Of a stretch of DNA of 64,000 nucleotides, positions 5,384-63,950 are shown piece after piece; position 1 is the stretch's first letter; every line of letters begins with the position of its first letter. Source of the DNA: Podarcis cretensis (lineage: Eukaryota). The notes beneath the pieces are model-generated. The model saw only the letters and a list, made by a program, of their open reading frames with translations. It did no database searches and had not been told where the DNA came from. The DNA lies in NCBI GenBank assembly GCA_951804945.1, contig OX638152.1, positions 46,996,001 to 47,060,000 of the forward strand. Direction: 5' to 3'. Both the position numbers and the translations under genes were made by a program.

Positions 5384-5515
5384 NNNNNNNNNNNNNNNNN
5401 NNNNNNNNNNNNNNNNNNNNNNNNNNNNNNNNNNNNNNNNNNNNNNNNNNNNNNNNNNNNNNNNNNNNNNNNNNNNNNNNNNNNNNNNNNNNNNNNNNNN
5501 NNNNNNNNNNNNNNN
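5384..5515. other. Assembly gap (132 N)
   Basis: Run of N. Confidence 1.
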
Positions 5516-13500: not shown

Positions 13501-14100
13501 AAAAGTAACGGGACTTTAAAAAAAAAAAAAAATTTGGCTGAAAACGGGAAAGGCAAAAATTAAGGAAGTCTGCCTCCCCGGAACTGCAGAAGGAATAAAG
13601 CAACGAAAATCAAGCTGCACTTAAAGGGAACCTTTCTAATTTTTTTTAAGCTGTCAAACTGACATCGGACTTAAAACCTCCCCCCAGATTGGCAGGAGAA
13701 GGGGGGAAGGGATTGGAACGTTGTTAACCTGCTGAAAAATTAATGGAGAATTAAGACCTTCCATTGCCAAATCCCCTGGGGTCGGGCTGCCCAAACAAGA
13801 CACCGGGACGTGGACTGTCAAACTTTGAGAAGTGGGGATTTGTTTGCAAAAAAGTTATCGGACCTTAGATGTACTTTGCTGCATTTTGGCCACATAGAAA
13901 AATAGAGACATTACAATTTGGACATTGGAAACTTTTGGCTACTGTTATACTTCCTTGCTTCTTTGTTTTCTTCTATCTCTGCCATTTGGATACAATTGAA
14001 TGCTCCCTCTAGAGGGCTCTATCTGAAACTGTTGCACTTGAAAAAGTAACAGTGGGATTTTCCACTTGGGAATCAGCTCTGTGAAAACGACCTTGAGGAT

Positions 14101-15093: not shown

Positions 15094-15100
15094 ATACAAA

Positions 15101-18100
15101 ATGTCTCTGCAACTCCTTAGTTGGAACTGTAATGGTTTGAACCTTCCTCGGAAAAGAAGACAGGTTTTTCACATTTTGAAGAAAGAACAATTAGACATAA
15201 TATGTTTGCAAGAAACCCATATTGCCAGGATACACAGGAAATTACTAATAAATAAGAGACTCGGTCAAGAATTCATCTCATCAGACAAAGTAAAGAAAAG
15301 AGGTGTGGTGATCTATGCAAAGGAAAAGTTGGCTCCAAAATTAATATTTAAAGATGAACAAGGAAGATACCTGGCAATTGAAATACAAATTCAAGGAGAA
15401 AAGATATTAATTGTGGGAGTTTATGCCCCAAATGAAGGGAAGGCTGAATTTTTTAGGAAGTTGCATGAGACATTAGTTGACTTTTTAGATTATAAAATCC
15501 TAATGATGGGAGATATGAATGGAGTTGTCTCAACAAACATGGATAAAGCACAGAGACAAGTGATTTCGAAAGAAGGGAGACTACCAAGGATCTTTTTTGA
15601 AATGACTGAAACAATGGACTTGATTGACATTTGGAGAACAAAGAATCCTTTAGAGAGAGAGGGAACTTTCTTCTCAGAAGCAAAAATGACATGGACAAGA
15701 ATAGACCAAATTTGGATTTCTAGTAGTCTGGCGTCAAGAACAAAAAAAGTAGAAATCTGCCCAAAAACGTGCTCCGACCATAATGCGGTCAAGATGGAGA
15801 TGAAACTAACAACAACTGGTTCCTTTAGATGGAGAATGAATGACACCCTATTCAAGGATGAAGAGATCCATAAGAAGGCCCTTAAAACATTAAAAGATTA
15901 CTTTGAGATCAACAGGAAAACAGATGTGGAAAAAAGAATAATTTGGGACGCAAGCAAAGCCGTGATGCGAGGTTTCCTAATTCAACAAAATTCTATTAAG
16001 AGGAAGCAACAAAATGAAAAGAAGGAAAAAATTTTAGAAAAAATAAAAGAAGGAGAGAAGAAGTTGAGGTCCAAACCAAAGTCCCATGAGATTTTGAGAG
16101 AAATAAAGTTTCATCAGATGCAATACATGGAACTCATGAACCAACAAATAGAATGGAAGATAAAGCAAATGAGACAAAAAACTTTTGAATCAGCGGATAA
16201 ATGTGGGAAACTTCTGTCATGGCAATTGAAAAAAAGGCAGAAAATGAATACGGTAACAAGTTTAGAAATGGATGGAAAGATTATCCACAAACCCAACGAG
16301 ATCAACAATTGTTTTCAAAGCTTTTTTAAGAAATTGTATGCACAAGGGCCAACCAACGAGCAAGAAATAGAAGAATTCATCAGAAAATACGGTTTACCAA
16401 AAATCTCAGAACAAAGTAAAAGGATCTTAAACGAGGAAATAACAGAACAAGAAATAGAGGGTGCCATTCAAAATATGAAATTGGGAAAATCACCAGGACC
16501 AGATGGCCTGACGGCCAAATACTACAAAATGCTGAAAGAACGGCTGATACAACCATTGAAGGAAGTTTGCAATGAAATTTTGAAGGGGAAAAAGGCACCT
16601 GAATCGTGGAAAGAGGCTTTCATCTCACTTATACCGAAAACAGAGACTGAGAAGAACCAGGTTAAAAACTACCGCCCTATATCTTTACTCAATGTGGATT
16701 ACAAAATTTTTGCAGACATTTTGGCAAAAAGATTGAAAAGAGTGTTGGCAGAAGAGATTCATAAGGATCAAACAGGCTTTCTCCCAGGTAGACATATGTC
16801 AGACAATGTGAGGAACATTATAGACATTTTGGAGTTGCTGGACGTTGACATTAATAGGAAAGTAGTTTTGATTTTTGTGGACGCGGAGAAAGCCTTTGAC
16901 AACATTTGTTGGACTTTTATGAAAAAGAATCTCCAAGGGATGGGGGTAGGGCAAGGTTTTGAAAACGGTATAGGTGCAATATACTCTCAACAAAAGGCCA
17001 AATTAATTGTAAATAACGTGGTAACAGAAGAAATACCTATAGAAAAAGGTACACGACAGGGCTGCCCAATATCCCCTTTGCTTTTTATATCGGTCCTGGA
17101 GGTTTTGTTAAACATGATTAGAAAGGACCAGTTGGTTAAAGGAGTTCAGGTCGGAGTTAGACATTATAAATTAAGAGCATTTGCAGATGACCTAGTATTG
17201 ACTTTGCAACAGCCAGACACTAGTACTAAAAGAGTATTAGAACTAATTGAAACATTTGGTCGAGTAGCAGGTTTTAAATTGAATAGACAAAAAACGAAAG
17301 TGTTGGAAAAAAATTTAACAATGGAAGAAAGAGAGAGTTTTCAAAATGAAACAGGTTTGGAAATTACAAAAAGGGTAAAATACCTGGGGGTAAACTTAAC
17401 ATCCAAGAATGTGAACTTATTTAAGGATAATTATGAAAAATGTTGGTTAGAAGTTAAAAAGGATCTGGAAATATGGTCAAGGCTGAAACTTTCCTTGTTA
17501 GGCCGAATCGCTACTATTAAGATGAATGTATTGCCTAGAATGCTGTTTTTATTCCAGACGTTGCAGATTGTGGACAAGATGGACTGTTTCAAGAAGTGGC
17601 AGAAAGACATATCAAAATTTGTCTGGCAGGGCAAAAAGCCCAGAATTAAATTTAAGATTTTAACTGATGCAAAGGATAGAGGGGGGTTTGCCCTGCCGGA
17701 CTTAAGACTTTATTATGAATCAGCAGCCTTCTGCTGGTTGAAACACTGGCTACTTCTTGAGAACACTGACATTTTGGATCTGGAAGGGTATGACAATAGT
17801 TTTGGTTGGCATGCATATTTATGGTATGACAAGGTAAAGGTGTATAAAAGTTTTAAAAACCATATTGTAAGGAAAGCATTGTACAACGTTTGGATTAGAT
17901 ACAAAGATTTGTTGGAAAGTAAAACCCCTAGGTGGGTGTCACCAATGGAAGCTAGGGAAGTAAAAAAGCTTAATATGGATTCTAAATGGCCAAAATATCA
18001 TGAGATCATAGAATACGATGGTGAAAGGGTGAAACTTCAGAGTTATGAGAAACTAAAACCTAAGGTTCGAGATTGGTTGCATTACTATCAGATAAATGAG

Positions 18101-18838
18101 ACGTTTAAACAGGACAGGAAAATAGGATTTCAGAAAGAGAAGTCAAAATTAGAAACAGAATTGTTGGAACCCAATACTAAGAATTTATCAAGAATGTATA
18201 ACTTGCTGTTAAAATGGAATACACAGGATGAAACGGTGAAATCAGTTATGATCAAATGGGCACAAGATATAGGTCATGATATCATGTTTGCTGACTGGGA
18301 ACAATTATGGACCACCGGTATTAAATTTACTGCATGTAATGCTCTAAAAGAAAATATTATGAAAATGATCTACCGGTGGTACATGACCCCAGTCAAGCTA
18401 GCAAAGATTTATCATTTGCCTAATAATAAGTGTTGGAAATGTAATGAGACTGAAGGCACTTTCTACCACCTTTGGTGGACCTGCCCAAAGGTTAAAGCTT
18501 TCTGGGAAATGATCTATAATGAAATTAAGAAGGTCCTTAAGTGGACTTTTCCTAAGAAACCAGAGGCTTTCCTTTTGGGTATGGTGGGCCAAGTGGTGTT
18601 AAGAAAGGATAGGACTTTCTTTATGTATGCCACTACAGCAGCAAGAATTCTACTGGCAAAGTATTGGAAGACGCAAGAATTACCTACTCTGGAAGAATGG
18701 CAAACAAAGGTGATTGATTTTATGGGACTGGCCGAGATGACGGGCAGAATCCGGGACCAGGGGAAAGAGACAGTGGAAGAGGACTGGAAGAATTTCAAAA
18801 TATATCTTAAAAATAATTGTAAAATTGAGGAATGTTAA
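15101..18838 (+). CDS. L1 ORF2p: APE endonuclease + reverse transcriptase + CCHC knuckle, 1245 aa from the first ATG
   Basis: EN motifs SWNCNGLN, CLQETH, GDMN, RIDQIW, SDH. RT motifs KSPGPDG, YRPISLLNVDYK, GTRQGCPISP, FADD, KYLG. C-terminal CWKC-x8-H-x4-C. ATG at 15101; the track's start at 15026 is a TTG. Confidence 0.96.
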   Translation: MSLQLLSWNCNGLNLPRKRRQVFHILKKEQLDIICLQETHIARIHRKLLINKRLGQEFISSDKVKKRGVVIYAKEKLAPKLIFKDEQGRYLAIEIQIQGEKILIVGVYAPNEGKAEFFRKLHETLVDFLDYKILMMGDMNGVVSTNMDKAQRQVISKEGRLPRIFFEMTETMDLIDIWRTKNPLEREGTFFSEAKMTWTRIDQIWISSSLASRTKKVEICPKTCSDHNAVKMEMKLTTTGSFRWRMNDTLFKDEEIHKKALKTLKDYFEINRKTDVEKRIIWDASKAVMRGFLIQQNSIKRKQQNEKKEKILEKIKEGEKKLRSKPKSHEILREIKFHQMQYMELMNQQIEWKIKQMRQKTFESADKCGKLLSWQLKKRQKMNTVTSLEMDGKIIHKPNEINNCFQSFFKKLYAQGPTNEQEIEEFIRKYGLPKISEQSKRILNEEITEQEIEGAIQNMKLGKSPGPDGLTAKYYKMLKERLIQPLKEVCNEILKGKKAPESWKEAFISLIPKTETEKNQVKNYRPISLLNVDYKIFADILAKRLKRVLAEEIHKDQTGFLPGRHMSDNVRNIIDILELLDVDINRKVVLIFVDAEKAFDNICWTFMKKNLQGMGVGQGFENGIGAIYSQQKAKLIVNNVVTEEIPIEKGTRQGCPISPLLFISVLEVLLNMIRKDQLVKGVQVGVRHYKLRAFADDLVLTLQQPDTSTKRVLELIETFGRVAGFKLNRQKTKVLEKNLTMEERESFQNETGLEITKRVKYLGVNLTSKNVNLFKDNYEKCWLEVKKDLEIWSRLKLSLLGRIATIKMNVLPRMLFLFQTLQIVDKMDCFKKWQKDISKFVWQGKKPRIKFKILTDAKDRGGFALPDLRLYYESAAFCWLKHWLLLENTDILDLEGYDNSFGWHAYLWYDKVKVYKSFKNHIVRKALYNVWIRYKDLLESKTPRWVSPMEAREVKKLNMDSKWPKYHEIIEYDGERVKLQSYEKLKPKVRDWLHYYQINETFKQDRKIGFQKEKSKLETELLEPNTKNLSRMYNLLLKWNTQDETVKSVMIKWAQDIGHDIMFADWEQLWTTGIKFTACNALKENIMKMIYRWYMTPVKLAKIYHLPNNKCWKCNETEGTFYHLWWTCPKVKAFWEMIYNEIKKVLKWTFPKKPEAFLLGMVGQVVLRKDRTFFMYATTAARILLAKYWKTQELPTLEEWQTKVIDFMGLAEMTGRIRDQGKETVEEDWKNFKIYLKNNCKIEEC

Positions 18839-20042
18839 GATGTCAGGGGGTAAGAAGTAAAGAATTGCAGCAGTAAACAAAAAAAAAACTTAAGAAATAT
18901 TTACGAAAAGGAATTAAGACAATGGACTTAAGGGTTGCTAAAGAATTATTAAACAAGGATGCAGGGATGGGGAGGTATGGGGAAGTCAAAGAAAAAAGGT
19001 TATGAACCGATGAGTATGAAGTTATATTGTGTTATATTGCTGTTTATTATCTGTGTGGAAAATTAATAAAAATTATTATAAAAAAAAAAAAAATGAAACT
19101 ATTCCTTGAGTGTCTGTTGACTCCCACCTCCCTTTCCCGGGCGCAATATTTTTCCCATCCGAGGGCAAAGCCTCATAAGGCTACATTTGGAAGATTGTGG
19201 AGGAACAGAACCTCCATCTGCCTCCTGTTTAAGGACTTCAACTTGCTCACCTTAAGGTGAGAGATGTTTGCAGAGCTGTCAAGAAAACCAGAAAAAGAGC
19301 TCAACAGTTGCTGTGGGTGCTTTTTAGTGATGTCATAACTTCGCTGTTTGGTGATGTCATAATCATTTCTGCCTTTAGAGAAATATTGCCAGTCTCTGTC
19401 TTGGATAGCAAGTTTTCAGGTAGCTAAAACACATTTTAATGAAAACTACAATAGCCAGAGTAATTATTCTCCCACTGCCCCAATAGCTATTGACTGAGCT
19501 GACAACACAATGATTTCTGAAATTTAGGAGAAATCCCTGAAGTGCCTGGAAATTGACAGGCAACCAATGGCAGTCCTTTAATAGCAAAGTAATGTACTCT
19601 CTGCTACTAACTCCAGCTAACAGTGGCAGTCACTGAATTCTAGAGTAGCTGAAGTGTCCAAACAATAAAAGGCTGGCACACATAGTTATTGCTATAATTG
19701 GTCCTTGAGGTGACTAGGTGATAAATGATGGTATCTGAGATCCCTCTCTTAAAGGATAAAACTGTAGCTTCTGCTGAAACTCTTTGAATCCAAGGGCAAT
19801 TTGACATCACCATTTTAGACTGAGATGTGGTGAAGCAGTAGTTATTAGTTAGCGGGTTTCTTTTGTTCTTTTCTTGTGTATTCCATGCTTTTATTTTGTA
19901 TTTTTAATGTTGTGAACTACTCTGAGAGCTACACATGAAGGGAGGTATATAAATAAAATAAAAAATAAAATAATATAAATATAATTGCTACACTATTATG
20001 CCAGTCGAGAACTCACTTCAGTTTTCCCATGCTATCACCATG

Positions 20043-20188
20043 AATCATAGAATCATAGAGTTGGAAGAGACCACAAGGGCCATCGAGTCCAACCCCCTGC
20101 CAAGCAGGAAACACCATCAGAGCACTCCTGACATATGGTTGTCAAGCCTCTGCTTAAAGACCTCCAAAGAAGGAGACTCCACCACACT
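20043..20188 (-). mobile_element. CR1 3' end
   Basis: (AATCATAG)2 octamer tail, then agttggaagagaccacaagggccatcgagtccaacccc. Confidence 0.85.
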
Positions 20189-21141: not shown

Positions 21142-21934
21142 CCTTAGACCAATACTCATCTAATCAGAAAATGTCCGTACATGCAACTCACAAGTACAGA
21201 TTGTAATTTCATTAAAGGGGTATTTACTGAACTTGAGCAAGCTACTCACAGTAGTAATACAAAACAGAACCATGCGATATTTTTAAAGAAACTAACAAAT
21301 GTGTGCATTCAGTGCAGTAGCCTCAGTCTCACAAGAGTTGGCACTGCTATCTTCTTCCATGTAAAGGTTTAAACACTTATTACAGCATGTCATAAATTTT
21401 AACTTGTAATTGAAAATCTTTCCACTTTCTTAAGGGGGGAGGAAAATCTTGTATCACTTGCTACATAATTACAGGCTATGCAGCTGGTCTCTCAGGCTTT
21501 GCTAGAAATTTGAAAACATGAAACGCTGCACAAGCCCTAATCAAATTTTATTAAACGTTAAGCCAAAGAAATGTCATCACCCATACCACAGCATATCAGA
21601 GAGTAACAATGGCTCCATATCTAAGCCTAAATAAAGCAGAAAATTTAGGACTTGATTTTGGCCATATTTAGTTAGAAGTCGTTATGGATGCTCTCCATCA
21701 TTTAGGGACCTCACTGCCCTTCAATATAAATGTGTCAGTCCTATTTGCATGAAACACACATCAAAAAGAAAACTAGTCACATTAATAAGCTACTTGAAGA
21801 GGCACACCATTCCTACTAGTCAGTTTACATTGTCCAAACACTTTAGGAATTATATCTAACCACTTTGATTAACCACCTTTGGAATATTCTGGCGGCCAGA
21901 ATCTGGCCTGTATTTTACAATTTACACTCTAAAA

Positions 21935-22070
21935 CAGGCATAGGCAAACTCGGCCCTCCAGATGTTTTGGGACTACAACTCCCATCATCCCTGACCACTG
22001 GTCCTGTTAGCTAGGGATGATGGGAGTTGTAGTCCCAAAACATCAGGAGGGCCGAGTTTGCCTATGCCTG
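21935..22070. mobile_element. Palindromic hAT-type MITE, 136 bp
   Basis: CAGGCATAGGCAAACTCGG...CCGAGTTTGCCTATGCCTG. TSD 6/8 (CTCTAAAA / ATCTAAAG). Confidence 0.88.
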
Positions 22071-22251
22071 ATCTAAAGCAACATTCAATTGTAAAACCTA
22101 TTATTTCAGTCATGGGTATCAAGCTGGTGATCTAACAATTTCTTGTTTACCTACAGTAGTTTGACATGAGTCATACCTGATTAAACGTTTTCCTTGTCTT
22201 TGTGAGGTATTGTGGGTTTAAACTTATGCAGATTTTTTAGAACAATATATA

Positions 22252-30796: not shown

Positions 30797-31300
30797 CCGT
30801 AATTTTTGCTCCATAAGAAGCACCGTCTGACCATAACACGCAGCTAGTTTTTAGAGGGGGAATCCAAGAAAAAAATATTCTTTAAAGGGAGCACTGAGCA
30901 GAGCCTGTATGCATCCCAGGCTCTGCTCAGCGATCCCTTTCACGAGCTGCGTGGATCGTGTGTGCGGCGCTTGCAGGCTTTTCCCCAAGGAGGGAGAAGG
31001 GCAGCCCGTTGCCCTTCTCCCTCCTCAGGGAGAAGCCCCCAAGAGCCGCACACACGATCCACATGGCTCTTTAAAGGGAGTGCAGCTCTTGCGGGCTTTT
31101 CCAGGAGGTGGGGGAAGGGACAGAGCACAGCTAAGCCAGAAGCTAGAACAGAGAGAGGGATTTCTGTGCAGCGCTCCCTCTCGCTGTTCTGGCTTCTGGG
31201 ATAGCTGCGCAGCCTGCATTTGCTCCATAAGATGCACACACACACTTCCCCTTAGTTTTTAGGAGGGAAAAAGTGCATCTTATAGAGCAAAAAAATACGA
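30797..31300. mobile_element. Tc1/mariner (pogo/Tigger-like) MITE within the 1025-bp ROBO2 intron
   Basis: TA|CCGTAATTTTTGCTCCATAAGA ... TCTTATAGAGCAAAAAAATACGA|TA, with an internal GC-rich palindrome. Confidence 0.8.
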
Positions 31301-31826: not shown

Positions 31827-34033
31827 CTGATACAAAAATAATATATAAATAAAAGAGAGGAAGAAAAAAGAAAGAAGATTTATTATAACAGCACACTGGC
31901 AAAGAAAAAAAATTTCTTGGTCAAAATTTCTTTGGTGGCTATTTAACATGCATTATAAAAAATCCATCCCAATCAGCCAATACACCAGAAATAAATATGA
32001 CTCCATAGGTGGCCGATTCTCAGCATGTGAGTACAGGCTATGCATATGTATTTTGTAGCAGTATCTCTCATATAAATGCACACATACACACCCAGTTTCT
32101 TTTTTTTTAATTCTGCAGCCACACCTGCCAAGTGACATCTGGCCAATGTGACCTTCTGAGGACAAAAAACCCTAATAGTATGATTGCCATTCTGACACTG
32201 AATTCTTTTCATTAAGGAAAACAGCATGCTGGACTTTGCTTGCAACCTTTTGGAAATCCTGTTTGCCTATCTCTCAACTGGCACCTATATCCACAGAAGT
32301 CACTTTAAAGTCATCTGGGCAAAAGATGAGGTGACACACTACACAGTTTTACTTCTACTGTTTAATAATAATAATAAAAACAAACAAACAGCAACAACAA
32401 TTTATGAAGGATGCCAAGATCTAGGTATACATAAAGGTATGCTTTTTTTATTCTCACTTTTTATCTTTGCTGCTATGATTGTGAGAGAAAACCAGAAGGG
32501 AGAAAATGCTTGCAGGTTACTCTCAACTGTTGGAAAACTAGTTTAGGGAACTACCTTCTTATAGAAATTATGTCACAGCACAGGGATTAGACTTTAGTGT
32601 TCAGAAATGATATTATTTTATCATTATTCTTCCATGCATGTTCCAGTCTCTAGGTTAATTGCCACCCTTAACAACACAGAACTGAAGAGAGCTCCAAAAT
32701 CAGCTACTAAAAATTAGGGCATCTCCTCTCTTGTAGTTCAACTATGCAAGAGGCTCATTACTGTTTTAATACAGATTTCACCTTTAGTGAAACAAGGGCC
32801 CTCTGAGAAATCAAGAAAAGCCTGTGTCTCACTAAAGGAGCAGTCTGGAACAGTTCAGCAAAAATGTTCACTCTTCACTTATAAGCAGATTTAATTTACT
32901 GCTTTTGCTGTTAATAAAATGTGCTCCATTTTAACATTTTGAACTGCACATTTCCCATTTTCGTGTGTTACATGGAAGGATAAAATTTATATGCACAAGG
33001 ATTAGCCACTGAATGGGTTGAGGTGAGCCTGCATATAAATCTGGCTCTCAGCTACAGATATGGGTTTCTGCTTATCGTTTTAGCATTTTCAAGGCACACA
33101 GGTAAATCCTAAGAGAGGGAGAAACTAATTAAAGGTTAATTTAGTTTCTAATATAAAAAGGAGCTGTTTATGTACACCATGTCTAGACGCAGAAAATAAA
33201 AATAAAAGAATTGGCGTAAAAATCATTCTGGCAAGAACTCCACTTTCTCTAAAGGAACACATCTGGCAGGGTGAAGGGCATATTTCAGAACCCTCTTCCC
33301 ACATTTTTCTTGCCTAAAGCTTCAAATGAAAGGCATCCTCTGGACTGGTGCATATTATACAAATCTTTCCCATAAAAAAGCAAGTTTATATATTTGCATC
33401 TGTCAAGAATTCACATTTGATAGAAAAGAAAGAAAAGAGTGAGGAATAGTTAATTTTGGAGACAAAATAGAATGTTGATATCCTAACACAGAAGAGCACA
33501 GAATGTGGCAAAGTATATCCAAAACACAGAAGTAAGAAATACACTATCAGAAGGCCAGCATATTCAACAATGACAATCCACAAAATTTCCCATTCTGTAA
33601 TATTCCTCTGTGTATATCAGTATACAAACACAGAAAGTGAGAAAATAATGAGGAAAAAAAGTTTATTTCACAAATGGAAGTTTGGTAATATTCAGGATCA
33701 AAAAGTACAATTTAAAAATTACACAGAAAGTCAAGCACCAATCCCAGCATGTTACAATACTGGAAACACTGATCTCTAAACTCTACTTGGCCTCTGGATT
33801 ATTTACATAATCACTGGCGTGCCCACTTTAGGATAATTAAATTTTAGCATCAGGATATGCTTTTTCTACTGTCTTCTGTCAGTGATCAAGCAATCACTTT
33901 CTACTCACTGTAATCCTTGACACCTGCCCCCAATCTAGATTATAAACCCCTTTGGGCTGGGACCATGAACTGTCTGCATTGTGTTCCATCTGAAAAGAGG
34001 AAAGGCAATCCTCAAACAAACAAGAAATTAACT

Positions 34034-34211
34034 AAAAAAAATCCTTCCAGTAGCACCTTAGAGACCAACTAAGTTTGTTATTGGTATGAGCTTTCGTGTG
34101 CAAGCACACTTTTCATACCAATAACAAACTTAGTTGGTCTCTAAGGTGCTACTGGAAGGATTTTTTTTATTTTGTTTCGACTACGGCAGACCAACACGGC
34201 TACCTACCTGT
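34034..34211. mobile_element. Short Penelope-like element insertion (inverted pLTR hairpin)
   Basis: Perfect 56-bp inverted repeat (34034-34089 / 34113-34168). Perfect 15-bp flanking duplication AACAAGAAATTAACT at 34019-34033 and 34212-34226. The ccagtagcaccttagagaccaac...ccaacacggctacc sequence is recalled as reptile Penelope. Confidence 0.75.
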
Positions 34212-41099: not shown

Positions 41100-41375
41100 G
41101 CAGTCCAGTCTTCCCCAACCAGGTACCGTTCAGATTTCTGGAGCTACAATTCCCATGCTTTGGCCATCTTGGCTGGGGATGATGGAAACTGTAGTAATAC
41201 AAAACATCTGGAGAGCTCCAAGTTGGAGAAGGATGCATTGGATAATTCAGTCAGTAGAGCATGAGGGTTGTGGGTTCAATTCCTACATTGGGCAAAAAAA
41301 GAATCCTGCATTACAGCGAGTTGGACTACATGACCCTCATGGTCCCTTCCAGCTCTGCAATTCTATTATTCTAAG
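41100..41375 (+). mobile_element. Degraded palindromic MITE followed by a tRNA-head/CR1-tail SINE (Squam2-like)
   Basis: ctacaattcccat...atggaaactgtagt core, then tcagtcagtagagcatgag...ggttcaattcc...gtcccttccagctctgcaattctattattcta. Confidence 0.65.
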
Positions 41376-42920
41376 GCTGCTGTAGTCTGTTATCCATAAC
41401 TTGTTAATATAAAACTCTCTCTTAAGTCACAGTAATACAACCACAAAATCAGAAAGCAGTTGTTCTAAAGGGAAAGACTTAAAAACAGTTGAATCTATTT
41501 TCTTGTTATAAAAAAGAATATGTCAAAGTGCATTTGTTACATTATTGGCTATATTATTTACAAACAACACATTTTATTAAATCCACAAAAGAATAATAGC
41601 AAATAAATCAATGTGTCATGTCAATGTAATAACAACATTATTATATCTATTAGTAAGCATAGATATGTTGGTGGGCTCTTAGCTGAGGGACTTCATAAAA
41701 TGAATAATATTCTTTCTTAAACAATATAATTAACTCTTAATGAACCTTTTCTCTTTTCCCAGTAAATTCAATTTAGTCTAATCCTTGGGTTTATGGTAAT
41801 GTTGAGCTCATTAAAATGTTACTTAAAACTCATTAAAATGCACACTGAGAGGTAACAGCTTCATTACAGTAATATATGGTAAAAGAAAAAAAGAATGCTT
41901 TATTATCATTTAATTGTTTCCAAAACTGAATACATTTGCATAGTGATAAGGTTCACAGGATACTTTAGATGGTACTCAATAATTAAGCAGCTCAGTAATT
42001 AAAAATGCATTTCTAAAAATAATTTTATGTTATTGCTTATTCTTGGTTGTTTTTCCAATTAGGAAAAGTAGCCATATCAATCCAGCTCATGAAATTGGGT
42101 GGAACAGATAGACAAGAAGACAAGATTAATTTTTTTTAGTTTCAGACAATGTGTATTTTTGTTCCATTTATTTTCTGTTCATAAACAGCACTTGAAGAGT
42201 AGTTACTGTTACATTAAAAGGTAAGGTATGCATATTCTAGTAAATGAGAACAGCCAAGTATTAGTCATTTAATTAAGTTGGGGAATTGTCCAGGAATTGT
42301 CCAGTAATGTAGAAATGCATTACAGTAACACCTGATGCAGACTTTTAAGTGCAAGTTGTGCCATTGTTTCACTATAGATTCAGAAGGGCCCAGGTTTAAT
42401 ACCTGGCATATTTAGATAGTTTGGGAAAGACCCATGGAGAGTCACTGATAATTAGTGAACACAATACTGATGAGATGTCTAGCACACGTGTACATACACA
42501 GACACAGACAGACACACACACATACAGTTTTTATATATAAACCACCAAGCGGTTCTCAAACTTTTTTCTCTGGGTCACACCTTCAGAATAAAAATTTGCT
42601 CATGCCACACCGAATTTTTAATTGATAAGAAATACATTGGAAAACAAAAAGAAACAACTGCCAGCAGTGCTTGATTTATAACACAGAATATGATCTTGAA
42701 ACATCCAGAAAGTATAAAATGCAGCTACATCAGAACATGCGTCATTCCCAACATATAATTATAAACAAGCACCTTACATATGTATAAAACCCAATGTGAA
42801 AGGTGAGCTGACTTTTGCCAGGTAAACTGCACACAAGGAGAGGAAGGGCAAATCCCACTGGGCAAGCAGAAGTCATTCTGCACATGGGGCACCTTCATCG
42901 GATCCAGCCCATGCAAAGCA

Positions 42921-44454
42921 ATCCTGGCTTATAAAAGCTAGCCGGGAAGGACTGGGCAATGGGCTTCGTGGGGTGGTGAATGCTTCCCTCCATGAGGGAG
43001 CCTTCCCAGACCCGCTGAAAGAGGTGGTTATTAAACCGCTTCTTAAAAAACCATCTTTAGATGCGGCCACAATGGCCAACTATCGCCCAGTCTCAAACCT
43101 TCCATTCTTGGGCAAGGTGATTGAGCAAGTGGTTGCTGAACAACTCCAGGCACGCCTGGAAGAAGCGGACCATTTGGATCCCTTCCAGTCGGGATTCAGG
43201 CCTCATCATGGGACTGAAACTGCTTTGGTCGCACTGGTTGATGATCTCCAGCGGGCTAGGGACAAAGGTGAGAGCTGTTTCCTAGTTCTGCTGGATCTCT
43301 CAGCTGCGTTTGATACCATCAACCATAACATCCTTCTGGACCGTCTTGAGGGTCTGGGAGCTGGGGGCACTGTCATACAGTGGTTCCGCTCCTTCCTCCT
43401 GGCCCGTGTTCAGAAAGTGGTGGGGAGGGGATGAGTGTTCAGACCCCTGGGCTCTCACTTGTGGGGTGCCTCAGGGTTCTGTCCTCTCCCCCATGCTTTT
43501 CAACATTTACATGCAGCCGCTGGGAGGTTTGGGCTGGGTGTTCATCAGTATGCGGATGATACCCAGCTCTACCTCTCTTTTAAATCAGAACCAGTGAAGG
43601 CGGTGAAGGTCCTGTGTGTCTGGAGGCGGTTGGAGGATGGATGGCGGCTAACAGATTGAAGTACTGTTTTTGGGGGACAGGAGGCGGGCAGGTGTGGAGG
43701 ATTCCCTGGTCCTGAATGGGGTAACTGTGCCCCTGAAGGACCAGGTGCGCAGCCTGGGAGTCATTTTGGACTCACAGCTGTCCATGGAGTCACAGGTCAA
43801 ATCTTGTCCAGGGCAGCTGTTTACCAGCTCCATCTGGTACGTACGCTGAGACCCTATCTGCCTGTGGACTGTCTCGCCAGAGTGGTGCATGCTCTGGTTA
43901 TCTCCCACTTGGACTACTGCAATACACTCTACGTGGGGCTACCTTTGAAGGTGACTTGGAAACTACAACTAATCCAGAATGCGGCAGCTAGACTGGTGAC
44001 TGGGGGCGGCCGCCGAGACCATATAACACCGGTCTTGAAAGACCTACATTGGCTCCCAGTACGTTTCCGAGCACAATTCAAAGTGTTGGTGCTGACCTTT
44101 AAAACCCTAAACGGCCTCGGTCCAGTATACCTGAAGGAGCGTCTCCACCCCCATCGTTCTGCCCGGACGCTGAGGTCCAGCGCCGAGGGCCTTCTGGCGG
44201 TTCCCTCATTGCGAGAAGCAAAGCTACAGGGAACCAGGCAGAGGGCCTTCTCGGTAGTGGCGCCCGCCCTGTGGAACGCCCTTCCAGCAGATGTCAAAGC
44301 GATAAACAACTACCTGACATTCAGAAGACATCTTAAGGCAGCCTTGTTCAGGGAAGTTTTTAACGTGTGATATTTTACTGTATTTTTGGTTTCTATGGAA
44401 GCCGCCCAGAGTGGCTGGGGAGGCCCAGCCAGATGGGCGGGGTATAAATAATAA

Positions 44455-44660: not shown

Positions 44661-44790
44661 GATCATAGAATTGGAAGAGACCATGAGGGTCATCTAATCC
44701 AACCCCTTGCAATCCAAGAATCTTTTGCCCAGTGTGAGGCTCAAACCCAGGACCCTGAGATTAAGAGTCTCATGCTCTACCGACTGAGCA
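44661..44790 (-). mobile_element. Squam2-like SINE
   Basis: atcatagaattggaagagacc...gaccctgagattaagagtctcatgctctaccgactgagc (reverse of a tRNA-Lys-like head). Confidence 0.75.
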
Positions 44791-45224
44791 AAATGGGACT
44801 GGTAGCTCCAATACAAAACAAATTAGCACCAAAGTCTCTAGAAATAATATGATCCATGGCTGGTTCACAGTTGCTTGTCACTGGCCTCAAGAGGAAGTGA
44901 GAAGTTAATCTTTGCCAGCCACAATAAGGCAGTTGAGGTTTGAGAGTATTTAACACTCTCTGTTATGCATGGGTGCCTTGCATAATGGAAGTGAACTTCA
45001 AAAATGCTCGTGGAACTATCAACTTCTAGCATCATGTTAAATGAATGCAGGCATGCTGTGGGCCCAACATTCAAATAGCTGAATATAGCATAAAATAAGA
45101 TTATAATTGGTTAAATAGTTATACGTGGATATGGAAATTCTTTTCTGTCTTTGATAAATACAACAAAATTAAAAGAATATATGGAACCTGAATTTTAGGA
45201 AAATGAAGGAGTAGGAGGACAGCA

Positions 45225-48766: not shown

Positions 48767-49127
48767 GGACGCAGGTGGCGCTGTGGGTTAAAGCCTCAGC
48801 GCCTAGGGCTTGCCGATCGAAAGGTCGGCGGTTCGAATCCCTGCGGCGGGGTGCGCTCCCGCTGCTCGGTCCCAGCGCCTGCCAACCTAGCAGTTCGAAA
48901 GCACCTCCGGGTGCAAGTAAATAAATAGGGACCGCTTACCAGCGGGAAGGTAAACGGCGTTTCCGTGTGCGGCTCTGGCTCGCCAGAGCAGCGATGTCAC
49001 GCTGGCCACGTGACCCGGAAGTGTCTCCGGACAGCGCTGGCCCCTGGCCTCTTAAGTGAGATGGGCGCACAACCCCAGAGTCTGTCAAGACTGGCCCGTA
49101 CGGGCAGGGGTACCTTTACCTTTACCT
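48767..49127 (+). mobile_element. Sauria SINE (Squam1-type), full length
   Basis: GGACGCAGGTGGCGCTGTGG head, B-box GGTTCGAATCC, (ACCTTT)n tail. TSD TTACTATCTGT at 48756-48766 and 49128-49138. Confidence 0.9.
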
Positions 49128-49161
49128 TTACTATCTGTACTTTTCCACAGTTTGTTAACAG

Positions 49162-50030
49162 TTGAGGCCAGAGAAAAACAATTCTCCCCAATCCTCTGGC
49201 CAAAGACTCTTTGTACTCCTGCTCTGGAAGTCCATTTGCCCTTTTTGGGCAGGTGGCTTTTTGGGTGGGCCCCAGGCCTCCTCTGGGAACTGGTCTATTG
49301 CAGGCTGGGCCGTCCTCCTACTGCCAAATTGGCCCATGGCAAAAGGAATCTATAGATGGCATTCCCCTGGGCGTGGGACCAACTGATCAATAGCAGTGCC
49401 TGGTCCCGTGCCCAGAGCAAGGATAAATGCCCGGCCTGCTGGGCATTTTGACCTCTCACTCACCATGCCAGTTCTCCCACCCACACTCCCTCAGATTAGG
49501 GTTTTTGCCGATGGTACAACCTTGCTATGGACAATGTCGGTTGTTGGATTTAGGGGCTGGGCAGGATTTTTTCCCATCTAGCAAATTGGCACCGCTATTT
49601 GGGTATTCACCTACCTCATAGCAATCATCTCAAAATTGTAAGGCAGATAGGGATTGGTTAAGCATAATCTTCGTTGGAGGGGAGGTTGTAGCCTCCGCCT
49701 GCCCCTCCACGGGTAAGGGTATTCTGTTAAAAGGATCTGGGAAGAGTGGCTCCTGTCCAATACCCAGAAGGGGGCTAGGGCCAGACCACTGCTCCAATGG
49801 AGACCACTTGGGGGACACCCCTATTTGACATAGGTCATAGGGCGTGTCCCCCCCCCCCGGCTTCACCCTTAGAAACACTCCCAGAGGACGGGCGAGAGTA
49901 AAATATGCAGTTGCTTACCTCAATGTCTATGACCAAACCTTTACATCTGTAAGCAATAAAGTTGTGGCCATATTTAATACCAAACCAATATGTGTCTAGG
50001 GAACAGGGTGGTTACGGGCCTCACCACACT
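49162..50030 (+). mobile_element. ~870-bp GC-rich terminal-repeat-like element A (solo LTR or DIRS/Ngaro-type repeat)
   Basis: Shares ordered blocks with 52707-53566: TTGAGG start, TCCCACCCAC, ACCTTGCTATGG, TTCACCTACCTC, CAATAAAGTTGTGGCCAT, ACTAATAAT end. No TSD. Confidence 0.6.
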
Positions 50031-50689
50031 AATAATACGAAGTTAGATTTGCCTCTTACGTGCTTGTAGAGAAAGCTGAAAGCTTCTGCTATTTTGGGCA
50101 AAAGCGTAATTGCACATACAAATAATATATTACACCAATACTGCTTTTATTAACGAGCATCCCAGAATTTAGCTAGAGCTATATAAACTTTCTTTCATAT
50201 TTTATCTAGTAGTGCTATATATTGAATGTGCTTGCTTTTTTGCTAGTAATACTCTGAACTACCTGCTTTGCTAGCCCTCATTTCCTCCCCCAGGGACTTT
50301 GCCATTCACAAGTTTCCAACTTTACAAGGACATTGAAATGACCAAAAGGGGAATGCAAAACATCCAGTAGTGAGGTTTCAGTGTAAGTCCCTGAATCTTC
50401 TGGCCAACAAAAGGTGAAGGGTGCTATTAGGGAGGATTAATGGACTGCTGGGAAAAGAATTGGCTTATTTGCATTAATCTTTATGATTAAAGATGGAGCA
50501 GATACCACTGTTACACAGTATGATACAAGTGTGCCGTAGCATTACAGCAAATCTCTAAAGGAAAGATCAGGGAACATTGTGGGAATTCCAAGCCAAGTAA
50601 ATCACCATGCCTGAGGAATTTAAATAGGCCCTTAATGCAAATATAGCACAAGCAATATTTAAAGATGTATATAGTTGCGAATATTACAA

Positions 50690-51290
50690 TGAAAACTGAA
50701 ATTAGAGACTGATGAGCTTCTCGGTCCTAATTCAGGAGAGGTTGAGAAAGAATAAGGAGAAAATAATGCCCTACTTGGATAAGCATAAATTGATAAGGTC
50801 AAACCTCTGTGAAAAGAAAATCTTGCCTCTTTGAGACATCACTGTTCTTGGAAAGAGTTAATCAAACAGGATAAAAGAAGGTCTTTTTCAAGTAATTTAC
50901 TTGGATTGTCAAAAGCCTCTGATGAGACTATTAAGGAAAATAACCACAGGGTAGGGAGGTAAAATCCTGTTGTGGATTAAAAATTAGCTAAGTGATAGGA
51001 AACAAAGACTTGTAATTAATGGCTGCTTCTCAGAGTGGAAAGAAGTTGAGTGAAGCACTCCAGGGATCAGTATTGGGATAAGTGTTCAATATACTTAATA
51101 ATGGTTTCAGTGAGGAAATCAGCTGAGAGAAAGGGAAATTGAGAAATAACACAAAGCTTGTTTATAGCTCTGAAGGATAAAACAGACTGGGAAATTCTAA
51201 AGGACAAATACAAATAGGGAATCAGCACAACAATGTCAAGAAAGGACAAGGTAATGTACACTGGTGGTAATGATTTCACATCTTAGTACA
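50690..51290 (+). mobile_element. Highly degraded CR1 RT fragment
   Basis: Remnants ttacttggattgtcaaaagcc (YLDFQKA-like), aggaaacaaagacttgtaattaatgg, cagggatcagtattggga (QGSVLG). Confidence 0.6.
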
Positions 51291-52706
51291 TATTAATTAG
51301 CACTTGGGGAGGAACATAATCCAAAAAGGAAGAAAGTGAGTAAGTGAATGTTTTAAGAAAGTGAGCTCACTTTTCGTAGTTACATAGGTTATTTGTGGGG
51401 CATAGGAAATCGTTCATTTCCCCCCCCCAAAAAAAAAAATATAGCCCACATGGTCTGAGGGATGGTAGACTGGCCCACGGCTGAAAAAGGTTGTTGACCC
51501 CTGCTCTAATTTGTTCATGGATGGGAAGCTAGAATTTAAGCTAGGTTTGAAAGGCCCTTATCTCACCCACCCACCCGTAATACTCCTCACACACACTCTC
51601 TAACAGCCAGTGCTATTTTTTTTCTAGAAAAAGAGCTGGCTGAGCTCACCAAGAACACCTGCCCTGTTCTCTTAAAATGGCAATGGCAGCCGCCAGAGAG
51701 ATGCCTGATCTGAGTTGTGGCTAAAGAAAAGCCCTGCTAACAGCCTACTGTAAGGTAGTAAAAAAACCTTCCTATTTAGGAAAGCTTTTGAAGCCATGTC
51801 AATTGTTGTATTGTATTTAAATCATTTTTTATTGTCACTGTATTTATAATATCTCTTCCCTTCCCTGAGGTTTTAGTGGTTTATAGCTGCTTAAATTTAT
51901 TTGTCGCTGCTCTTAAATTACTTTAATAGCTGGGGTCCTAATTCTACAATTCTATGATTCTATTATTTTGATTTATTATATCCCGCTAATGTATTTGGAA
52001 AAGTAGAATATAAATGTTTTAAATAAATAAACACACTGCTTATAGACAGGTAGCATCTGCAACACTAAGCACGTGAGGTAAGAGCATTTTAAATGTTATG
52101 GAGCACAGACATGGGTAAATGCGTTCCAGATGTTTCCAGGTGGGGCCTATCATGTTTCAATTGGTCCTGAATGTTTATTATTAAATGAATACTAACTGGA
52201 GTCCATTCTTGGTCATTTCATAAGAGTTCAATATCAAGATTACATAGTATTTTGACATAGTAGAGCTCATCACAAGCAGCAACATTCTGCAAGCATCGAA
52301 TGGCAAATGAAATGTTTAAAGGAAGATACCAAGGTAGTAAAAGCATTAAACAGCTGCAGAATCCAACCGGTAAAATATTCCTGTTAAAGCATTTGAGATG
52401 CATGTAAATGTAAACCTCTCTCACAGAAATTACTTAAATGTCCTCAGAAAATAAAGAGGAAGGGGTAGGGAGCAGGAAAGCTACTACTGCTGTGCTTTAC
52501 ATCAGCATTTAGATCTATTAGCTACCTGTGCTGGCCTGTTTAATTAAACTCTCTGCTGGAAGTGAATAGCTTTTTCTATCAAACATTACCATTTTGAGCT
52601 TCACTGCAAGATATATTTTCTTTGAAAGTAGTAGTACTTTCATAAGGCTTTCGCTCCAGCAGTGTTAAAGGCAACTATTTGGGGTTTGTTTCCCCTCCTG
52701 AACAGT

Positions 52707-53566
52707 TTGAGGGAGAATAGGTTTTCAGTTAAAAGTGACAAGCCTATACTGACACCACTTCTAAGCTTTGTAGAACAGGCCAGTGCCCCTTCCGATCTTC
52801 AGGAGGAGGGGGGGTTGTGGGATCACGACCCCGCCCACACTCACTCTGCGAGGCTGGCGTCAGCCTCGCAGGAGACAGGGATTCACCCAATTAGCATACC
52901 CTGTGGCGCCAGCCAATTGGCTGGCGGCAGGGGCGGGCCTTCCTAGGGCCACTTAAGGTCAGGGCAGCCCCTGGCTCGCCCCCTTTCTTCCCTGGAGACG
53001 ACGCAGTTTCCCACCCACCCGCCCTTTAGGTTTTGCCACTGACCTTGCTATGGGCTTCGGCTGGTCGCCGCAAGGGGCCTGGTAGGAGTTTTTCCATTTG
53101 GCTAATTGGCTGGTTTTGTGAGCCACTTGGTTTTTTCACCTACCTCGTAGCAAATCGTCACAACTCCCTCGGTTTTGGCGGTAGGCATTGGCCGGGGTAT
53201 TATCATGCAGATGAGGTTGGGGGGGAGGAACGCCATCACCTCCCCCAATGCTTGAAGGGTAGTTCGTTAAAGGACTCCGAGGGGCGACGCCTCGTCCGAA
53301 ACCTACGGAGGCTAGGGCCTAAAGCGCGCCCCCGAGCGGTAACCCCTCGGGGAGCGCCTAGGGATATGCATCTCGGGTGGCTCCCCCTGTTGGTGTTTAA
53401 CCCTTCCCGGTCAGACCGGATAGTCGGTTAGGGCCAATGCCTAAAGCCAATACCCTTCTTTCCTGTAATCAATAAAGTTGTGGCCATTTTCGCCCATTAA
53501 CCTAAAACTCTGTGTCCGTTGTCTTCATTTATTCCACCTGTGGGGGGGAGGGAATAGCCACACAAC
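52707..53566 (+). mobile_element. ~860-bp CpG-rich terminal-repeat-like element B (same family as A)
   Basis: Same blocks as element A. CCAAT and GC boxes near 52890-52940, AATAAA at 53471. High CpG retention. Confidence 0.62.
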
Positions 53567-54184
53567 TAATAATTGTTTTTGGTCTTCCCAAAAAGTGCTT
53601 TCTTTGAAGTTTAACCCAGTATGATATGACACCCTTATCTGGCTAAAGAGTTCCAGCTATGTTATTGGTACTGTTACTGGGCTAAAAAGTTCAGTGTTCC
53701 CCTTCAGAGAAATGGTAACATACTGTATGGAAAACTGTGAGCTAACATGTCAGGTCAAGAAGGCAGTGAAATATGGCTCCCCGCCCACTTCTCTGACCAA
53801 GCTGGAGGAGGTGGCCTTGGGTGTGATGTTGGAGAACTATTTTCAATATCCAAGTGAGTGGTCCCACCCATCTTGAAAGGCTCCCTGGATTGAATTGGTT
53901 TCTGACAACTATTGCCCAGTTGCAAAAAGCCCATTTTCTGACAAAATGATGAAGAGGGTCACAGTGAGGACAGTTGCAAGCACTCTTGGATACACACCTC
54001 AGCGTCTCACTGGCTTGGTCACCCCCCCCCCGAATTCGCGGCGCAGAGCCGCCTGCAGCAGAGCCTGTTGCAGCATTCTGACCAACAGGCAGGCTCTTCC
54101 CCCGAACTCAACTCTCAGGTCCTGGACTCTTGGCCTGGCGCCCATGAGAGCCTGGCGCCTGGGTGCCCCACACCCCTAGCACCT

Positions 54185-54780
54185 ATGGGTAAGATGGCCC
54201 TGGATATGGCCAAATCTGGGATAGCCTGGCCACTGTTGTCCATGTACTGGTAAGCCTCCAGATTGGATTACTACTGAACTGCACTCTATGTGGGGCTGTC
54301 CTCGAGGATGGCCCAGAAGCTTTAGCTAGTGAAAAACGCAGCATGTAGACTGCACATTGGGACAGACTGCCACCATTAATTTAAACTGTCACTGAAAGAA
54401 TTGCAACTGCAATAGCAAAGAATAGTTGCCAATAAGCTACTAGGATAAGTTCAAGGTGCTAGGACTAGTGTCAAAAGTCCTATACAAATTGGGACCAGGA
54501 TATCCAAGATAACTCAATTTATCTACTATTTAATCAGGAATTCCATTCCATATGAGGTAGGAAATGAACCTTTAGTGTGGTAGCAACTACTCTTTGTTGT
54601 TCCTTTAGTGAGGTGTGATCTCTATTATCTTTTTGGAGATAGCTGCCTACTGAAGATTTGTCTTTTCAACCAGCATTTTTATATCTATACTGTAATTCAT
54701 ATTATTCCTTAATATAGGTTTTTATTGTTGATGTTTTTATTGTTAAATCATTTCGGAATGTTTTATGGGAAGCTATAAAC
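54185..54780 (+). mobile_element. Degraded L2 3' fragment
   Basis: cctccagattggattactactgaactgcactctatgtggggctg parallels L2 43905-43945; ttcaaggtgct parallels FKVL. Confidence 0.55.
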
Positions 54781-54831
54781 AAACCAACAAACCAACAGAC
54801 AAACTGAATGATGAAACACTTTTTCTTTGTA

Positions 54832-55057
54832 CAGTGGTACCTCGGGTTAAGTACTTAATTCGCTCCAGAGGTCCATTCTTAACCTGAAACTGTTCTTAAC
54901 CTGAAGCACCACTTTAGCTAATGGTGCTTCCTGCTGCTGCCGCACTGCCGGAGCACGATTTCTGTTCTCATCCTGAAGCAAAGTTCTTAACCTGAGGTAC
55001 TATTTCTCGGTTAGTGGAGTCTGTAACCTGAAGCGTATGTAACCTGAGGTACCACTG
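54832..55057. mobile_element. Tigger-like MITE
   Basis: TA|CAGTGGTACCTCGGGTTA ... TAACCTGAGGTACCACTG|TA, with internal (TAACCTGA) repeats. Confidence 0.88.
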
Positions 55058-55588
55058 TATGTGCTGTGTTGCAATCAGACAGCTCATGTAACATCAAACC
55101 ATAGTTAGTGATATATACTGTAGATTCCAGAGTATTAGGCGACTGGGCAGACAGCAGCAGTGGGTGGCGGGCTCGGCGCCAGAAGGAAGCCGCCCAGCGA
55201 TGCCAGCTTAGGTACTGATTGCTAAAAAAAGAAGGAAAATATATGTATAGATGTGAGCAGAAATAGAAATACTATAACTGAAATAAAATACAATACATCA
55301 CACTAAGTATGGAATATTGTGACCAAATTAACCTGTGTGCCTGCTCTGTCTGCTGCCCAGATGCTCTTGATGGGCTACTTCAAGGTCCCCACTCTCCCAA
55401 TCCATGGTTCCTATCCTTAAAACAGACCTGAACCAGAAAACCCTTCAAACAAACTTTCTTATAGAAGGCTGCCCTCTGTAAAATAGGACATTTGTCCACT
55501 AGCAATATATGAACTAGTCATTGGTTCACATGTTTCTTTTTTTCCACTTGCGGGTAAAATTAAATTAGCTACTTCTTACTTAAGACAA

Positions 55589-55962
55589 GGGACGCGGGTG
55601 GCGCTGTGGGTTAAACCACAGAGCCTAGGGCTTGCCGACTGGAAGGATGTCTGTTCGAATCCCTGCGACGGGGTGAGCTCCCGTTGCTCGGTCCCTGTTC
55701 CTGCCAACCTAGCAATTCGAAAGCCTGTCAAAGTGCAAGTAGATAAATAGGTACCGCTCCAGTGGGAAGGTAAACGGCGTTTCTGTGCGCTGCTCTGGTT
55801 TCGCCAGAAGCGGCTTAGTCATGCTGGCCACATGACCCGGAAAAACTGTCTGCAGACAAACGTTGGCTCCCTCAGCCAGTAAAGCGAGATGAGCGCCGCA
55901 ACCCCAGAGTCGTTCGCAAGTGTACTTCACTGTCAGGGGTCCTTTACCTTTACCTTTTTATG
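55589..55962 (+). mobile_element. Sauria SINE (Squam1-type), full length
   Basis: Same head and (ACCTTT)n tail. TSD TAAGACAA at 55581-55588 and 55963-55970. Confidence 0.9.
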
Positions 55963-56144: not shown

Positions 56145-56308
56145 TCATAGAATCATAGAATTGTAGAATTGGGAGGGACCACAAGGGTCATCTAGTCCAA
56201 CCCCCTGCAATTCAAGAATCTTTTGCTCAACGTTAGGCTCAAACTCATGACTCTGAGATTAAGAATTTCATGTTGTACTGACTGAGCTCTCACAGACTGA
56301 GCTATCCC
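56145..56308 (-). mobile_element. Squam2-like SINE
   Basis: (ATCATAGA)n tail and reversed tRNA-like head; homologous to 44661-44790. Confidence 0.75.
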
Positions 56309-63239: not shown

Positions 63240-63950
63240 GTGATGTAATTAAAACTGCAATAAAATATATATATTAAAGCATTGTATGAAACAAAAAGAC
63301 AGAGTCCAACTTAATGATGTAAAAGAAAGAAAAACACACACATGATGTTTCCTATACAGTAGGGGAAAGAGTATTACAAACCACAGAGGCAGCACCAGAA
63401 AACGTCCCATGAGTCACTGCCATACAATGGTCCATAACACACAGCATCACTTACAAGACCTTCCCAGATGATATTCATGAACTACTAGGTCTGTATAGAG
63501 GTAACTAGGTTCCAAGATGTTCAGGGGATTATGTATTAATAACAAGAAACTGAGCATGTATCAAGAGCTAATCGGCAGCCAGCGCAGTTCTTTCACCACA
63601 GGTGTAAAAGGAGCATATCTGGATGTCCCTATTCTGCACCAGCTACATCTTCCAGAGCAGTCTCAGGGGAAGGCTCTCACAGTACCGGTAATTAGAATAA
63701 TCCAATCAGGAGGTCAGCAATGCCTCATTTGCCCAGTTATCCCTGTCCAGAAAAGCTTGTAGTTGGTGTACTAACTGAAGGTGAGTGTAGGTGCTCCTTG
63801 CAGTAGCTGACACTTGATCCTCCAAGGACAATGATGGATCCAAGAGCACCTCCAACATTATATTCTTCAAGATCATTAAGAAGGTCCTAAAGCCAGGACT
63901 GCAGTATATCTAGAAGGCAGCCAATTCACAGGCTTTGAAATGGAAGAAAA
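63240..63950 (-). mobile_element. Degraded L2 fragment
   Basis: cagccagcgcagttctttcaccacaggtgtaa is the reverse of an ITPVxKELRWL-like motif; ataatccaatcaggagg is the reverse of an SxLDY-like motif. Confidence 0.55.

Follow-up and report, generated by a model that had tools for sequence, protein, structure and literature searches.

In the PAN-type ENE, a single U-rich internal loop is flanked by short stems rich in G-C pairs (PMC7583470, PMC13541005), and in PAN RNA the triplex between the ENE and the poly(A) tail slows deadenylation (PMC7583470). Further ENEs are on record in plant, fungal and slime mould transposons and in stickleback retroviruses, some of them inside LTRs (PMC7583470). About 200 transposon ENEs are predicted, nearly all in plants or fungi with one fish case, and tests have been carried out on about 10 (PMC7583470, PMC12501189). 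The ENE of the Arabidopsis element Evade (Copia93) is described as forming a poly(A) triplex, protecting against deadenylation and giving rise to more transposition (PMC12501189). Solo AB repeats, derived from tyrosine-recombinase retrotransposons of the Ngaro type, have also been described (PMC8547959), as has SIRE (PMC6681497).

A preliminary description of the DNA studied here had held that ENEs are mainly viral, plant and fungal, which is correct, with the qualification that a vertebrate precedent exists in the stickleback retroviruses. Tycowski, Shu and Steitz reportedly treated the ENEs of transposable elements, including those of stickleback retroviruses, in 2016. Literature searches, conducted mostly without subscription papers or supplementary ENE lists, returned no ENE in a squamate or reptile transposon. 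The window analyzed here is a stretch of 64,000 nucleotides from Podarcis cretensis, in whose numbering all positions are given. A terminal-repeat-like unit within it (copy A) contains what appears, from its sequence and from folding models, to be a credible candidate for a PAN-type ENE, residing within a conserved RNA fold.

An ENE-like arm in a predicted four-way junction

53045..53153, + strand: four-way-junction RNA domain P1-P4 (predicted fold; 29 of 31 pairs retained in copy B)
53045-52/53146-53, + strand: P1, outer closing helix, 8 bp with one U-G
53053-62, + strand: hairpin P2, UUCG loop
53063-79, + strand: hairpin P3, GCAA loop
53081-53144, + strand: ENE-like arm P4, from sequence read-out and fold
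53081-86/53139-44, + strand: P4 lower stem, 6 bp, G-C-rich
G53088-C53137, + strand: possible closing pair in P4, pair probability about 0.5
53089-93 opposite 53131-36, + strand: P4 U-tracts, U5 and U6, respectively
53094-96/53128-30, + strand: P4 upper stem, CCA/UGG
53099-103/53121-25, + strand: P4 apical stem
53471..53476, + strand: poly(A) signal AATAAA, followed by a GU/U-rich stretch

In the predicted fold, P1 closes a four-way junction in which P2 and P3 precede the U-rich arm. The linkers of the arm are AG on the 5′ side of U5 and CA on the 3′ side of U6, and the U-rich loop is bordered by CC/GG above and, below, by a G-C pair, an A.A mismatch and then GG/CC. On the same strand, AATAAA begins at 53471, which is 327 nt 3′ of the arm in copy A; the corresponding distance is 340 nt in copy B, a second copy of the repeat. 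The preliminary description had named the outer helix, the lower and upper stems, the two U-tracts and the poly(A) signal, and every one of them is found on the + strand where it had been placed; the four-way junction with its hairpins P2 and P3 went unmentioned there. Its further enclosing helix is P1, the poly(A) signal lies at almost exactly the separation of about 330 nt that it had estimated, and the CpG-rich, terminal-repeat-like setting that it had reported is borne out by a CpG o/e of 0.62-0.75. Copy A combines three features of a single-domain ENE, namely opposed U-runs, short G-C flanking stems and a poly(A) signal on the same strand.

The repeat that carries the arm

52769..53573, + strand: copy A, solo terminal-repeat-like unit of ~0.8 kb, delimited by GC change, CpG and homology to copy B
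52736-53590, + strand: alternative limits of copy A, with TG...CA ends and a 5-bp AAAAG duplication
52887..52957, + strand: Pol II promoter-like cluster 1 (motif scan; putative function)
53558..53573, + strand: 3′ end block CCACA...CTAATAAT, common to both copies

GC content climbs at ~52760-80 and drops at ~53560, delimiting an island of 58% GC and CpG o/e 0.62 inside a 39%-GC, repeat-rich window, and composition favors the narrower limits of copy A. The wider limits depend on TG...CA ends with a duplication, a test also satisfied by 104 of 3000 random zones, and no TG...CA with a target-site duplication was found at copy B. Promoter-like motifs followed by a poly(A) signal give copy A the anatomy of a solo terminal repeat. 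Cluster 1 contains two CCAAT boxes, a GC box and the TATA-like word TTAAG (at 52887, 52913, 52931 and 52953), and in copy B the word GATAA at 49422 lies at a distance to the fold similar to that of the TATA-like word in copy A. A second TATA-like candidate, GTTAAA, is situated at 53266-71, 120 nt 3′ of the arm. Both TATA-like words have CCAAT-type sites upstream and counterparts in copy B.

Copies A and B share a CTT-TGTA start, and this common start together with the CCACA...CTAATAAT end would suit an element with an end other than CA, for example a Ngaro-type solo AB repeat; as a control for the end block, an 8-mer was shared by 43 of 20000 random 16-nt pairs. By sequence, the shared non-CA end and the absent duplication in copy B are compatible with, and not diagnostic of, a Ngaro/PAT-type element. 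No gag-pol or other internal region of the element occurs within the 64-kb window, which holds the solo unit only, and literature searches on the element class yielded nothing usable.

A coding role was considered for a 133-codon frame that runs across the motif and was rejected, as the frame is not open in copy B. Searches with this frame returned 0 of 40 candidate relatives, 0 hits among 1.84 billion representatives and no Pfam family. Two poly(A)-signal motifs were used to look for stray host DNA in bacterial and archaeal genomes, with 0 matches; a shorter motif gave 53 matches there, about the number expected by chance, with further similarity in 0 of 53. Plasmid and phage collections contained no match.

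Several other elements populate the window. An apparently full-length L1-like LINE, possibly still intact, occupies 13171-18838 (+ strand) and has a CpG-rich 5′ region, an open ORF1 (14050-15093) with no Pfam match and an open ORF2 of 1274 codons with endonuclease and reverse transcriptase. Directly 5′ of it, at ~12880-13170 (+ strand), is a short LTR-like stretch with a TATA-like run, an AATAAA near 13135 and a CA end, which is unrelated to the repeat studied here (E 9.7). Two young, CpG-rich SINE copies at 48767-49128 and 55563-55957 are 79% identical, and the first of them ends in a short tandem tail and shows a target-site duplication of 10 bp; they may be of the Sauria type, which would accord with the lizard origin that the preliminary description had supposed. 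A tRNA-like sequence at 44726-44798 (- strand; 37.8 bits, CUU anticodon loop), with related sequences at 56164-56287, 41264-41351 and 20042-20100, is probably the head of a tRNA-derived SINE. Palindromic MITE-like elements at 3299-3434, 21927-22078, 30934-31079 and 34024-34178 have sub-threshold Rfam miRNA matches. A broken non-LTR reverse-transcriptase element lies at 42826-44370, with related fragments at 11381-11668, 19543-19623, 54257-54503 and 63474-63801, and an assembly gap of 132 N spans 5384-5515.

Rarity of the motif

The rarity of the arrangement was gauged with an ENE descriptor that was composed after the motif had been seen. It matches once in the window when both strands are scanned. 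Block shuffling of the window produced a match in 1-2 of 100 trials, whereas shuffling of the repeat gave 0 in 5000. Because shuffles under-represent U runs, pairs of U-runs from the real sequence were also examined. Among 105 pairs of runs of at least five U in the window, one has a lower stem of at least 5 bp together with an upper stem of at least 3 bp, the expectation among the other 104 pairs being 0.07-0.27 under an assumption of independence. CC/GG closure together with a lower stem is found once among the 762 pairs of runs of at least four U in the window. The motif is real and uncommon, but copy A considered by itself makes no overwhelming case against chance.

Copy B and conservation between the copies

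49212..50036, + strand: copy B, a diverged, CpG-depleted relative of copy A (5′ limit uncertain; homology from ~49355)
49522..49624, + strand: copy B counterpart of the four-way domain, located with the covariance model of copy A

A self-search of the window revealed copy B 3.5 kb upstream of copy A, for a total of two copies. Copy A 52890-53568 is homologous to copy B ~49355-50034 (nhmmer E 9e-28; 61% identity by blastn over 535 nt). The CpG o/e of copy B is 0.33, less than half the level of copy A, so copy B is probably the older of the two.

With copy A as its sole input, a covariance model scores the copy B domain at 47 bits, the next best of the 24 matches listed scoring 14. On copy B the structure model scores 47.0 bits and the sequence-only model 29.6 (E 1.5e-9 vs 2.9e-8), on scales that are not strictly comparable, and the self-scores of the two models differ by a similar 16 bits. 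The sequence of the arm, its position, the homology of the copies and the retention of pairs are direct observations. P1 is intact in copy B, the 5′ U-run is kept as U6 (49567-72) and the upper stem reads CCCA/UGGG. The 3′ strand is interrupted, with 3 U in the 5 nt at 49603-07 and no run; the lower stem has one C.A mismatch, the closing G-C is absent and the arm is not formed in copy B's own fold (p about 0.01).

Of the domain pairs compared between the copies, 21 are unchanged, 6 are changed on one side, 2 are changed on both sides and 2 are broken. Neutral simulation retains at least 29 of the 31 pairs in 0.1-1.7% of runs at d 0.24 and in at most 0.12% at d 0.35. Identity is concentrated in P1, the lower stem and CCA/UGG, where 32 of 34 bases are identical vs 62-66% elsewhere (binomial P 8e-5). 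Compensatory changes, counted over two sequences, number 0 in the 9 core-stem pairs and 2 outside the core. A two-sequence shuffle control was not significant (135/500), nor was a test of the four-way domain by sequence-only alignment, in which 3 of 22 mapped pairs are broken (26 pairs in total; P 0.18-0.71). An alifold z of -4.7 over 30 column shuffles was set aside, the arm being out of register in that alignment and column shuffles overstating significance.

The preliminary description had proposed that the repeat family as a whole carries an ENE. Copy B retains the fold and the 5′ U-run, but a paired 3′ U-run and core-stem covariation are lacking, which goes part of the way towards refuting the family-level claim, although this single further copy is old and decayed. 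Overall, the interpretation offered in that description is partly supported. The 3′ U-strand of copy B either decayed after insertion or belongs to a subfamily without the loop, alternatives between which one copy cannot discriminate; with CpG at less than half the level of copy A, decay of one strand is plausible.

The 3′ domain and the poly(A) signal

53171..53454, + strand: 3′ structured domain with closing long-range helix 53171-93/53432-54 (20 of 23 positions complementary)

Downstream of the four-way domain in copy A is a multi-branched structured domain closed by a long-range helix, which has a pair probability of 1.0 wherever the span allows it; copy B keeps 9 of its 10 core pairs. This helix, if formed, loops out ~280 nt and leaves ~35 unpaired nt between the four-way domain and AATAAA, so that its folding would bring the cleavage site 3′ of AATAAA close to the arm. 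Within the domain, which is otherwise 62% identical, the words GTTAAA (53266-71; copy B 49726-49731) and GGCTAGGGCC (53310-19; copy B 49773-49782) are identical, and neither word has an Rfam match. In both copies, GGCTAGGGCC could pair with a CCUA-containing segment ~40 nt 3′ of it, a possible pseudoknot.

Helices picked by hand in the 3′ domain keep 45 of 46 pairs, with 6 compensatory changes including a G-C to U-A swap, a count biased by selection with both copies in view. In unbiased tests, the copy A fold has 3 broken pairs among 28 mapped (of 92) vs 5.0-8.7 expected (P 0.002-0.22), and the copy B fold, with 21 of 76 pairs mapped, gives P 0.0005-0.12; the range of P in these tests is the range of transition bias assumed. 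As judged from sequence comparison and folding models, this repeat has probably been under selection for RNA structure, and the prior for a functional U-rich arm is higher as a result.

The region of the poly(A) signal is the most conserved part between the copies (87% over 30 nt). The segment 53477-53487 that follows AATAAA is complementary to the end block at 53557-53568, and this complementarity is partly kept in copy B. Conceivably, the pairing forms a hairpin that masks the poly(A) site, or it could be an internal complementary region of the kind that tyrosine-recombinase elements have. Two other readings of the 3′ domain were discarded. A ribozyme, suggested by a resemblance to hammerhead and pistol motifs, was rejected, as the hammerhead-like GAAA is not retained in copy B and there is no match to an Rfam family. 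A conserved GNRA loop at 53339 was dropped because it has a single closing pair.

Folding in isolation and in longer contexts

53162..53167, + strand: competitor segment, able to pair with the 5′ loop strand 53085-90; complementary at the same offsets in copy B

In isolation the 109-mer is predicted to adopt the arm fold, its lower stem pairing with a probability of 0.90 and CCA/UGG with one of 0.75. Its stability is ordinary (z -1.29; 22 of 200 shuffles as stable), fold z-scores overall being -1.1 to -1.5. In copy A the probability of the lower stem depends on context, at 0.58 for 52980-53500, 0.05 for 52980-53575 and 0.0 for 52769-53500, and across ten span settings it ranges from 0.0 to 0.73, exceeding 0.5 in one of the ten. 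The main competitor of the arm in longer folds is the pairing of the 5′ loop strand with 53162-67, which prevails in the longest fold of copy A. Because nearest-neighbor energy models omit triple-helix stabilization and P1 is the best-conserved helix, the loss of the arm in long folds calls for caution and suggests a possible switch rather than a refutation.

Rfam offers little at this locus: 0 of the 44 weak matches in the window fall in either copy, in a library that may not include an ENE-core model, local scans gave 8 and 5 weak matches, none relevant, and the one match at gathering score in the whole window lies outside both copies.

Proposed mechanism and alternative readings

Judged from folding models and by analogy with described ENEs, it seems on balance probable, if not strongly so, that copy A contains a PAN-type single-domain ENE in a retroelement terminal repeat, which would bind the element's own poly(A) tail. 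We infer that the repeat is transcribed, that its RNA folds in vivo as predicted, and that triplex formation stabilizes it. P1 and the two small hairpins would form the four-way junction that presents the U5/U6 arm, a predicted fold that is conserved in copy B. The long-range helix, predicted in copy A and partly conserved in copy B, would pack away the next ~280 nt and leave the cleavage site near the arm. The poly(A) tail could then bind the loop, forming about five U.A-U triples and touching the underlying G-C pairs through A-minor contacts, and by extension from PAN and Evade, slower deadenylation of an intron-poor RNA would provide more RNA for reverse transcription. Copy A would be a young solo repeat that still carries an intact motif, and copy B an older copy of another subfamily in which the full 3′ U-run was lost or was never present.

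The reach of such an element would depend on which TATA-like word is used. With a start near 53295 the motif would lie in U3 and act only in the 3′ repeat; with a start near 52985 it would lie in a long R and act in solo repeats too. Should the upstream cluster at 52887-52957 be the true promoter, the ENE would reside in an R of ~510 nt, and each solo repeat could be a gene for a capped, intronless, polyadenylated and highly folded RNA of ~0.5 kb that clamps its own tail. A reptile genome would then harbor a whole family of stable, PAN-like nuclear RNAs, possibly belonging to a tyrosine-recombinase element, a scenario that we regard as quite unlikely. Literature searches found no report of an ENE in tyrosine-recombinase elements.

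Foremost among the alternatives, and still rather doubtful, is the notion that the four-way domain is selected as an RNA structure (for packaging, export, strand transfer or poly(A)-site control) and not as a poly(A) clamp, the second U-run being specific to copy A or its subfamily. Copy B retains the stems and not the 3′ U-run, as expected on these grounds, and structure and conservation extend over the entire 3′ half of the repeat. The presence of U5 facing U6 with CC/GG closure, seen in one of the 762 pairs, is nevertheless left unexplained, as is the kept 5′ U-run in copy B, where decay of one strand is plausible given the low CpG.

Conservation could instead operate at the level of DNA, through an enhancer or promoter with NF-Y-type CCAAT sites, the hairpin being a by-product of short inverted sequences. 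The reverse CCAAT box AATTGGC, superfluous to the RNA model, occurs unchanged in the apical loops of both copies and repeats the upstream CCAAT boxes; the second TATA-like word, identical in both copies, stands a short distance downstream; and the fold z-scores are weak, with the arm lost in long folds. Such a role does not predict an 8-bp helix with arms 93 nt apart that is kept on both sides, and the changes between the copies mostly preserve pairing, including wobbles possible on the + strand only (4 and 8 G-U, 0 A-C, a result partly built in because the helices were picked on the + strand). A DNA role by itself is improbable as an account of the locus, and DNA and RNA roles of the region can coexist. 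Very improbable is a switch or internal triplex in which the 5′ loop strand pairs with the segment just 3′ of P1 in alternation with the ENE-like fold, for example in the 5′ vs 3′ repeat, since this pairing, though also possible in copy B (49565-70/49632-37) at offsets identical to those in copy A (53085-90/53162-67), with U-A in place of one G-C, and dominant in the longest copy A fold, is a post hoc observation of six bp in two sequences, involves a segment that aligns poorly and would disrupt P1 and the lower stem, the best-conserved parts.

Comparison with known systems

If the reading of the copy A arm as a PAN-type ENE is true, it would place an ENE in a young, multi-subfamily amniote repeat and extend the clamping of retroelement tails in vertebrates beyond fish. 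The repeat would furnish a large natural alignment for the sequence rules of ENEs and for the delivery of tails by a long-range helix, and host transcripts ending in these repeats would acquire a stability element. As the mechanism of the ENE is already known, the gain would be one of range and testability rather than of kind.

Isolated, noncoding, ~0.8 kb long and equipped with promoter-like motifs as well as a poly(A) signal, copy A resembles solo LTRs of ERV or Gypsy elements and Ngaro-type solo AB repeats. Its ends fit neither class cleanly, with TG...CA and a 5-bp duplication in copy A only and the non-CA end block in both copies.

The closure of the U-tracts by CC/GG is a feature shared with the MALAT1 and MEN-beta ENEs, but the U-runs of copy A lack a C/G interruption and a canonical AATAAA is present. 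A MALAT1-type ENE was rejected, as no A-rich tract precedes the poly(A) signal and the motif in copy A is followed by no A4 run until 53504. ARAGORN, which may miss mascRNA-like folds, found 0 genes in 49000-55000, and no relevant Rfam match was obtained, leaving no sign of a tRNA-like structure. Many MALAT1-like loci are said to have been found in Anolis by Zhang et al. in 2017.

A double-domain ENE was likewise rejected, there being a single U-rich loop and a next internal loop of 2x2 nt. Copy A differs from the ENEs of transposable elements in its single rather than double domain, and would also differ in its amniote host; it shares with them the retroelement setting and the position near the 3′ end, and the one fish offers a vertebrate precedent. 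The mechanism proposed for copy A is like that of the Evade ENE, although Evade has four U-tracts located between the ORF and the 3′ LTR and copy A has two, inside the repeat.

The closest analog is the KSHV PAN ENE. In contrast to PAN, the predicted arm of copy A sits in a retroelement repeat, where it would branch from a four-way junction, and lies 327 nt from AATAAA. It nonetheless has the same layout of loop and stems, room for about five U.A-U triples, a position 5′ of the poly(A) site and, as in PAN, no A-rich third strand encoded in the genome.
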